A program made the translations under genes and the position numbers. Below, piece by piece: positions 17,965 to 18,216 of a stretch of 64,000 nt of DNA. Source of the DNA: a bacterium (lineage in GTDB: Bacteria > Krumholzibacteriota > Krumholzibacteriia > LZORAL124-64-63); assembly GCA_020440705.1 (NCBI GenBank), contig JAGRNP010000006.1:1404-65403 (forward strand). The letters are read 5' to 3'. How positions within the stretch are numbered: position 1 is the stretch's first letter; each line of letters begins with the position of its first letter. The notes under the pieces are model-generated. The model did no database searches. It worked only from the letters and a program-made list of their open reading frames with translations, and had not been told where the DNA came from.

Positions 17965-18171
17965 TTGTCCCCAGGGTTGTGGACAACCCGGCACGGCCAG
18001 GATGACCGGGGCCCGGGCCCCGGGACGTCGATCGGGTCGCGCCGTCCGCCGCAGTATGGGGGCGTCGCGGCGGGTTTTCCACCGCGAAGCCATGTTGTCC
18101 CCCACTTGTCCCCGGCCCGCCGGGACCCTGTCCCCGGGTTTGTCCCCCGGTTGTCCACAGGATTGTCCGCA
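17965..18171. promoter_or_regulatory. Cluster of DnaA-box-like 9-mers (TTGTCCACA type) upstream of dnaB
   Basis: Perfect TTGTCCACA at 18151-18159 (+) and 17978-17986 (-). Variants at 17965, 18095, 18106, 18128, 18140 and 18163. Confidence 0.75.
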
Positions 18172-18186
18172 GTCCGGCAGCGGGCA

Positions 18187-18216
18187 TTGGCCCCCGACGG
18201 ACCCGCGTGATACCAT
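18187..18216 (+). promoter_or_regulatory. Sigma70-type promoter for dnaB
   Basis: TTGGCC-N18-TACCAT with an extended -10 TG, immediately downstream of the box array. Confidence 0.45.

Follow-up and report, generated by a model that had tools for sequence, protein, structure and literature searches.

The 331-bp non-coding gap upstream of dnaB in this Candidatus Krumholzibacteriia MAG contains nine 9-mers that resemble DnaA boxes. We consider it likely that this gap binds DnaA and thereby controls the dnaB promoter. The control region would take the form of an oriC-like array for DnaA oligomerisation that probably activates the gene, with DnaA titration as a side effect or a second role. The window, by which we mean the whole 64,000-nt stretch of DNA analysed, is C374:1404-65403 of an assembly of 407 contigs (4.36 Mb, 70% G+C). 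The gap spans window positions 17935-18265 and lies between dnaB and a divergent gene for a SAM-methyltransferase. The features of the locus are listed in Table 1.

Table 1. Genes, DnaA boxes and promoter elements at the dnaB locus, in window coordinates
Feature	Position	Strand	Remarks
Class I SAM-dependent methyltransferase gene	17050-17934	-	Pfam Methyltransf_25/11; ATG at 17934
Distal head-to-head box pair	17965-17986		TTGTCCCCA (+, 17965-17973) and TTGTCCACA (-, 17978-17986), 4 nt apart
GC-rich perfect palindrome	18006-18023		CCGGGGCCC/GGGCCCCGG; downstream of the distal box pair and ahead of the array
DnaA box TTTTCCACC	18075-18083	+	Opens the array; invariant across the genus
Weak DnaA boxes	18095-18114	+	TTGTCCCCC (18095) and TTGTCCCCG (18106), 11 bp apart
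Weak DnaA boxes	18128-18148	+	CTGTCCCCG (18128) and TTGTCCCCC (18140), 12 bp apart
Promoter-proximal consensus DnaA box	18151-18159	+	TTGTCCACA; TTATCCACA in most relatives
Last box of the array	18163-18171	+	TTGTCCGCA; a same-strand box in the window's genome only
Putative dnaB promoter	18187-18216	+	-35-like TTGGCC at 18187-18192; 18-nt spacer; -10 TACCAT at 18211-18216
Shine-Dalgarno sequence GGAGGA	18253-18258	+	7 nt 5' of the dnaB TTG start
dnaB, replicative DNA helicase	18266-19798	+	TTG start; Pfam DnaB and DnaB_C

The dnaB gene is single-copy, with one match in the whole assembly, and its product scores above the cut-offs of the NCBIfam equivalogs PRK05748 and TIGR00665. The protein has an N-terminal extension of about 55 residues, rich in proline and alanine (window 18266-18440), ahead of the conserved N-terminal domain. 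This extension differs in length and sequence among the relatives, and their matches to the query begin at residues 1 to 59. A longer open reading frame, 18002-19798, would make the array part of the coding sequence. We rejected it because the frame is closed 9 to 45 nt upstream of the dnaB start in several relatives, and because the Shine-Dalgarno and TTG region (GAGG and TTGG.AGGC) is invariant in the genus alignment. The methyltransferase has no NPPY/DPPY motif, and an NCBIfam search with it returned no family at or above cut-off. Of 57 related loci, 55 keep its gene next to dnaB in divergent orientation.

The stretch from the distal box pair to the array has two further elements. At the position of the palindrome (18006-18023), each genus genome has its own, different short GC palindrome when the alignment is read by eye (for example CCCCCgaatGGGGG, CCCCgtgaatGGGG and GTCCcgtaaaacGGAC), which suggests a conserved hairpin or cruciform. 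Farther downstream, the relatives share a conserved ATTATC where the window has AGTATG (18053-18058). The minus strand of the hexamer in the relatives reads GATAAT, and from its sequence it may be the -10 element of the methyltransferase gene. In that case, the methyltransferase transcript would be expected to start near 18046, the distal pair and the palindrome would lie in its 5' leader, and the TTTTCCACC box would lie over the -35 position of its promoter.

The same-strand boxes start at 18075, 18095, 18106, 18128, 18140, 18151 and 18163, in steps of 20, 11, 22, 12, 11 and 12 bp. A preliminary description of this DNA had placed boxes at 17965, 17978, 18095, 18106, 18128, 18140, 18151 and 18163. 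We found every one of them there, along with the reported steps of 11, 22, 12, 11 and 12 bp and the two reported perfect TTGTCCACA sites (17978 on the minus strand and 18151 on the plus strand). The list was incomplete, however, in that it missed the TTTTCCACC box, 20 bp upstream of its first array box. The assembly has five perfect TTGTCCACA sites in all, two of which are those in the dnaB gap. The reading of the 18163 site as a same-strand box holds for the window's genome but not for the relatives, which have at this place an inverted half-site, TGTGGA (TCCACAggatTGTGGA), palindromic with the consensus box. The array was also said to end 15 nt before a -35-like hexamer, and the distance from the last box (ending at 18171) to TTGGCC (starting at 18187) is as given. 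The likening of the boxes to the actinobacterial type is best kept as an analogy. This MAG belongs to the Krumholzibacteriia and is no actinobacterium, and its relatives mostly have TTATCCACA and TTnTCCCC at the same positions.

The two ends of the gap resemble each other. The distal pair lies 31 to 52 nt upstream of the methyltransferase ATG and is kept in the genus as TTATCCCCA-N4-TGTGGATAA. Its segment (17964-17993) and the proximal module (18150-18179) are direct repeats that are 77% identical. We propose that the consensus box at 18151-18159 is the anchor of the array. In the boxes at 18095 and 18106, the core columns are invariant in the genus. Tandem Repeats Finder (TRF) reported a weak period-12 repeat over 18129-18172 (score 46). 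A recent tandem duplication was rejected as the source of the array because the spacers have diverged and the box cores are fixed.

The box definition used for counting, TTNTCC[A/C]C, was derived from the alignment of the relatives. This motif occurs 588 times in the genome (0.135 per kb). Only three 250-bp clusters in the whole assembly contain at least three copies: the dnaB gap with seven, the dnaA-dnaN gap with four and the rpmH-dnaA gap with four. A scan for other clusters, especially near dnaA-dnaN, had been put forward in the preliminary description, and it thus led to the two flanks of dnaA and to no other place. The cluster in the dnaB gap is far beyond chance. Within the whole window, seven of the nine matches to TTGTCCMCA with at most one mismatch fall inside the 210 bp of the cluster. 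Nine closely spaced box pairs were found in the genome, namely five at dnaB, two at dnaA, one in a 16S rRNA gene and one at the end of contig C66. The pair in the 16S rRNA gene (C13:12590) was dismissed as a chance match. We also discarded a cluster of TTGTCC hexamers at C221:41177, which ranked next after the dnaB site and the dnaA-dnaN gap, as a coding-repeat artefact. The protein encoded at C221:41000-41560 has calcium-binding repeats that resemble those of thrombospondin type 3 (D-x-D-x-D-G-x-x-D-x-C-P), and the reverse-strand TTGTCC cores arise from the repeat codons GAC-AAG/GAC-AAC.

The TTNTCC[AC]C motif flanks dnaA in eight relatives as well. This co-occurrence with dnaA is the main reason why the motif can be identified, at the sequence level, as the organism's own DnaA box and that of its lineage. 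The DnaA protein of the genome, encoded on the minus strand of C406 at 9509-11068, has all its parts: the N-terminal domain, the AAA+ domain and the DNA-binding domain at the C-terminus. From the motif we infer that the dnaB-gap array is bound by DnaA.

The boxes are conserved far better than the DNA around them. In a genus alignment of the gap from six genomes, 88% of the box-core columns are invariant versus 14% of the other intergenic columns (Fisher p = 1e-19). Position 3 of the box varies freely in the genus and may be A, G, T or C. We then compared 57 related dnaB loci, whose G+C content ranges from 44 to 74%. They have 222 same-strand boxes within 600 bp upstream of dnaB, versus 38 in the remaining ~295 kb. 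The preliminary description had called for a look at conservation upstream of dnaB, and at least three same-strand boxes are present there in 44 of the 57 loci, although the loci are phylogenetically related and such counts are therefore not independent events. The boxes have been kept while the spacers and the base composition have changed, which argues for selection, and the comparison indicates that the element in the dnaB gap is under selection.

The phasing is conserved along with the boxes. Across the 57 loci, the spacings between successive boxes peak at 11, 20-21, 32-33 and 44 bp. In more distant genera the TCCAC core alone persists, still at 11-bp steps. A search of 26 genomes for two boxes spaced by exactly 11 bp gave 24 cases, versus none in a backward-read control. 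Of the 24, dnaB has 16 in its upstream region, and five more follow a pepD-like gene. The other families of the class have only zero to two boxes upstream of dnaB. Therefore, the full array is a family-level feature and is not essential to a link between DnaA and dnaB.

The preliminary description had assigned a -35/-10 pair to dnaB. A simple sigma-70 and terminator scan of 17850-18350 returned no terminator and no promoter with at least 9 of 12 matches; the pair has 8 of 12 matches to the sigma-70 consensus, which may not be the consensus of this phylum. The promoter call therefore rests on conservation. In the genus alignment, C.TG.TA...T.G is invariant at 18206-18218 and marks an extended -10 element, TGATACCAT, at 18208-18216. 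The spacer of the putative promoter ends in the extended -10 TGA (18208-18210). From these elements, dnaB transcription would start near 18223. Relative to that point, the box centres would be at about -56, -68, -79, -91, -113, -124 and -143, and all the boxes lie clear of the -35, the -10 and the start site of the putative promoter.

The distance from the array to the extended -10 is held across genera. TGnTAnnnT follows the start of the proximal box by 60 to 62 nt in 23 related loci and in the window's own locus (60 nt here). In six loci the distance is 50 to 51 nt, which is one helical turn less. Face-of-helix contacts with RNA polymerase would predict just such a register, fixed within 1 bp or shifted by one whole turn, and a pure DnaA sink would not need it.

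These features suggest that DnaA most likely tunes the supply of helicase through the array at the dnaB promoter. The paired-box modules at the two ends of the gap (17965-17986 and 18151-18171), both of which have consensus boxes, would be occupied by DnaA most of the time. Five weaker same-strand boxes (TTnTCCCC or TTTTCCAC) precede the proximal module, and their steps of 20, 11, 22, 12 and 11 bp would place them all on one face of the helix. By analogy with known arrays, the weak boxes would fill cooperatively, and only at a high level of active, ATP-bound DnaA. The resulting DnaA filament would stop about 15 bp short of the -35 position. Since the helical register between the array and the extended -10 is fixed, the filament would most likely touch RNA polymerase, and dnaB transcription would go up as the initiation potential rises. 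Such activation would couple the supply of helicase to replication initiation. Occupancy of the array by DnaA would also necessarily sequester DnaA. The divergent methyltransferase promoter may be a further target, through the distal pair and the first box. If regulation exists, we lean toward activation as its sign, on the basis of analogy and box position. Control of helicase transcription by DnaA was among the functions put forward in the preliminary description, and it is the one that we favour, given the fixed register with the extended -10 across genera and the precedents in Mycobacterium and Caulobacter.

Another of those functions was an oriC part uncoupled from dnaA, so that the gap would be a replication origin or half of a split origin. 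Origins do have box arrays of this kind, which are dense, oriented and in phase with the helix and have high-affinity anchors. However, the gap has a G+C content of 71% and no 40-bp window below 60%, and no repeated DnaA-trio-like run was seen beside the boxes; the preliminary description had likewise noted neither an AT-rich unwinding element nor a trio run. In contrast, the dnaA-dnaN and rpmH-dnaA gaps combine box clusters with 40-bp windows of 37.5% and 30% G+C, respectively, and windows as AT-rich as those flanking dnaA make up about 0.2% of the genome windows. As had also been reported, dnaA is outside the window, on another contig. The window's own assembly being so fragmented, GC skew was judged in a relative with long contigs, G014, which has six boxes at dnaB. 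There the cumulative skew drops monotonically over 400 kb through dnaB, where the array is the sole box cluster within those 400 kb, and the minimum for contig C3 lies in the dnaA bin. The skew minimum that had been suggested as a check of origin function is thus at dnaA in this relative, without an inflection at dnaB. In the window itself, there is no permanent switch in the sign of the skew at 18 kb. The two genes are also apart elsewhere. In the closed genome G037, from a different family of the class and lacking the array, 143 kb separate dnaB and dnaA, and in G014 and G023 the genes are on separate contigs. Around dnaA in G023:C2, the GC skew is ambiguous. Origin function of the dnaB-gap array is very unlikely, and we give almost no weight to either form of this reading.

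A second alternative is that the gap is purely a titration or reservoir locus, which would buffer free DnaA and delay initiation, and that its place beside dnaB is incidental. The cluster is the largest in the assembly, bigger than either dnaA flank, and it is a high-capacity box cluster outside oriC, as are the B. subtilis DBC and Streptomyces D78. The latter is reportedly a titrating cluster of DnaA boxes. In B. subtilis, the deletion of six clusters outside oriC leads to early initiation, and some of the clusters covered in that report also regulate their neighbours (PMC3245932). Titration would by itself also select for conservation of the boxes, though not for a promoter register. It leaves unexplained why the distance to the extended -10 varies across genera by no more than 1 bp or else by one full helical turn, and why the array is always at dnaB and always on the dnaB strand. 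By composition, the gap shows no AT-rich, IHF-type site such as a datA or DARS locus needs (the lowest 40-bp G+C in the gap being 60%), although the phylum may have an IHF motif of its own. We regard pure titration as unlikely, and titration may hold alongside promoter control. Finally, a different regulator could bind the repeats, with their likeness to DnaA boxes due to chance. Winged-helix response regulators, such as those that bind Pho boxes, recognise direct repeats with an 11-bp periodicity and a TGTC core, and the 11-bp direct repeats here would suit an OmpR/PhoB-type protein. But the array contains the perfect universal DnaA consensus, TTATCCACA in the relatives and TTGTCCACA here. 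The same 8-mer clusters elsewhere only at the two dnaA flanks, in this genome and in eight relatives, and the genome has no clusters at other operons, as a response-regulator regulon would require. We therefore hold this reading to be highly improbable.

The origin itself is likely to be at C406:9014-9508 (the dnaA-dnaN gap) and C406:11069-11520 (the rpmH-dnaA gap), and a bipartite origin around dnaA is possible. Six TTGTCC-type boxes are present in the dnaA-dnaN gap, which is AT-rich over a stretch beside dnaN. This gap also has same-strand weak boxes of its own, in steps of 9, 20, 31, 12 and 11 bp, and the steps of 11-12 and 20 bp are similar to those of the array at dnaB. The rpmH-dnaA gap has a G+C content of 50% and two perfect TTATCCACA boxes in inverted orientation, spaced by 12 bp; this pair upstream of dnaA is kept in several relatives.

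Outside the window, a second phased DnaA-box site, TTGTCCCCAagTTATCCACA, was seen at C66:51749-51787, downstream of a gene for a PepD-like dipeptidase. The contig then ends, and its continuation in the assembly was not found by end overlap or by tblastn with the downstream gene of the relatives. In most of the family relatives L152-L161, the gap downstream of pepD keeps DnaA boxes just past a terminator-like hairpin, and in five genomes two of these boxes are 11 bp apart. After the boxes, the gap in the relatives has an AT-rich stretch of more than 100 nt, a third box (TTATCCCCC) in most of them, and then a CitD/CitE-like gene. GC skew around this site is noisy in G010 and G013. The site could represent a further promoter under DnaA control or an element of the datA/DARS kind.

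A link between DnaA and dnaB is already documented in mycobacteria and in Caulobacter. The region upstream of dnaB is among the five top sites of M. tuberculosis DnaA in vitro (IDAP-seq) and of M. smegmatis DnaA by ChIP-seq (Hicks et al. 2020, PMC7738170). In the same study, the DnaA I282T mutant bound more weakly upstream of dnaB and dnaB was under-expressed, and this pairing of lower binding with lower expression points to positive control. As in the present genome, the mycobacterial boxes are directly upstream of the helicase gene and away from oriC. In both lineages, the dnaB site is among the very few strongest sites of the genome, together with oriC and the dnaA promoter, although in our case this strength is predicted. 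The mycobacterial site is backed by binding experiments, whereas the Krumholzibacteriota site is known from sequence comparison. The settings differ too: Mycobacterium belongs to the Actinomycetota and has Rv0057 as the neighbour, whereas here the phylum is the candidate phylum Krumholzibacteriota and the neighbour is the divergent SAM-methyltransferase. The long, strictly same-strand array with 11-bp phasing, an anchor at each end and a fixed extended -10 register is described here only.

In Caulobacter crescentus, dnaB has predicted DnaA boxes upstream and is a member of the DnaA regulon (Hottes et al. 2005, as summarised in PMC8203912). According to that summary, its expression depends on DnaA at the G1-to-S transition. 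The summary speaks of predicted boxes only and describes no array, and the evidence is transcriptional there and comparative here. Three features of the Mycobacterium and Caulobacter type are found in our sequence as well, namely a box cluster beyond chance, made of the organism's own DnaA box and located just upstream of dnaB and its promoter.

The architecture of the array recalls E. coli oriC, where arrays of low-affinity sites in one orientation are nucleated by high-affinity boxes and build ATP-DnaA oligomers (Rozgaja et al. 2011, as summarised in PMC4285127). Both have weak sites in one orientation beside a strong nucleating box, and in E. coli the weak sites fill cooperatively with ATP-DnaA. 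However, the array here has no unwinding element and abuts a promoter instead of a DUE, so the resemblance is one of mechanism and not of membership. E. coli DnaA is also described as preferring closely spaced pairs of sites (PMC11317965). Among clusters outside origins, those of B. subtilis affect the timing of initiation (Okumura et al. 2012, PMC3245932). Like E. coli datA, they are able to sequester DnaA, and some regulate an adjacent gene, as may the array at dnaB. They differ from it in their neighbouring genes, none of the clusters described in that source being reported at a replicative helicase gene. Moreover, E. coli datA needs an IHF site, and by composition none is evident in the dnaB gap.

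For genome annotation, the locus is a case in which the densest DnaA-box cluster of a MAG need not be oriC. It is also an unusually clean natural case of an origin-like array in front of a promoter, with anchors, phased weak boxes and a fixed extended -10 register, and it would be a convenient template for the study of how DnaA filaments talk to RNA polymerase. As judged from sequence, the finding would extend the regulatory link from DnaA to dnaB, shown experimentally so far in the Actinomycetota and the Alphaproteobacteria, to a candidate phylum of the FCB group that is uncultured. A bolder reading, which we hold only tentatively and think doubtful, is that the dnaB promoter in this family has a complete origin-style oligomerisation region, made up of two high-affinity anchors of paired boxes and a phased array of low affinity and lacking only an unwinding element, and that this region is the main DnaA site outside the origin. 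It would then be an ATP-DnaA sensor that activates dnaB and, at the same time, the principal initiator sink, in place of a datA-type locus. If so, the dnaB array would combine with the phased double box downstream of pepD into a minimal DnaA network of two loci. Seen alongside the cases in mycobacteria and Caulobacter, such an arrangement would point to a link between DnaA and dnaB that is ancient or has been reinvented repeatedly across distant phyla.
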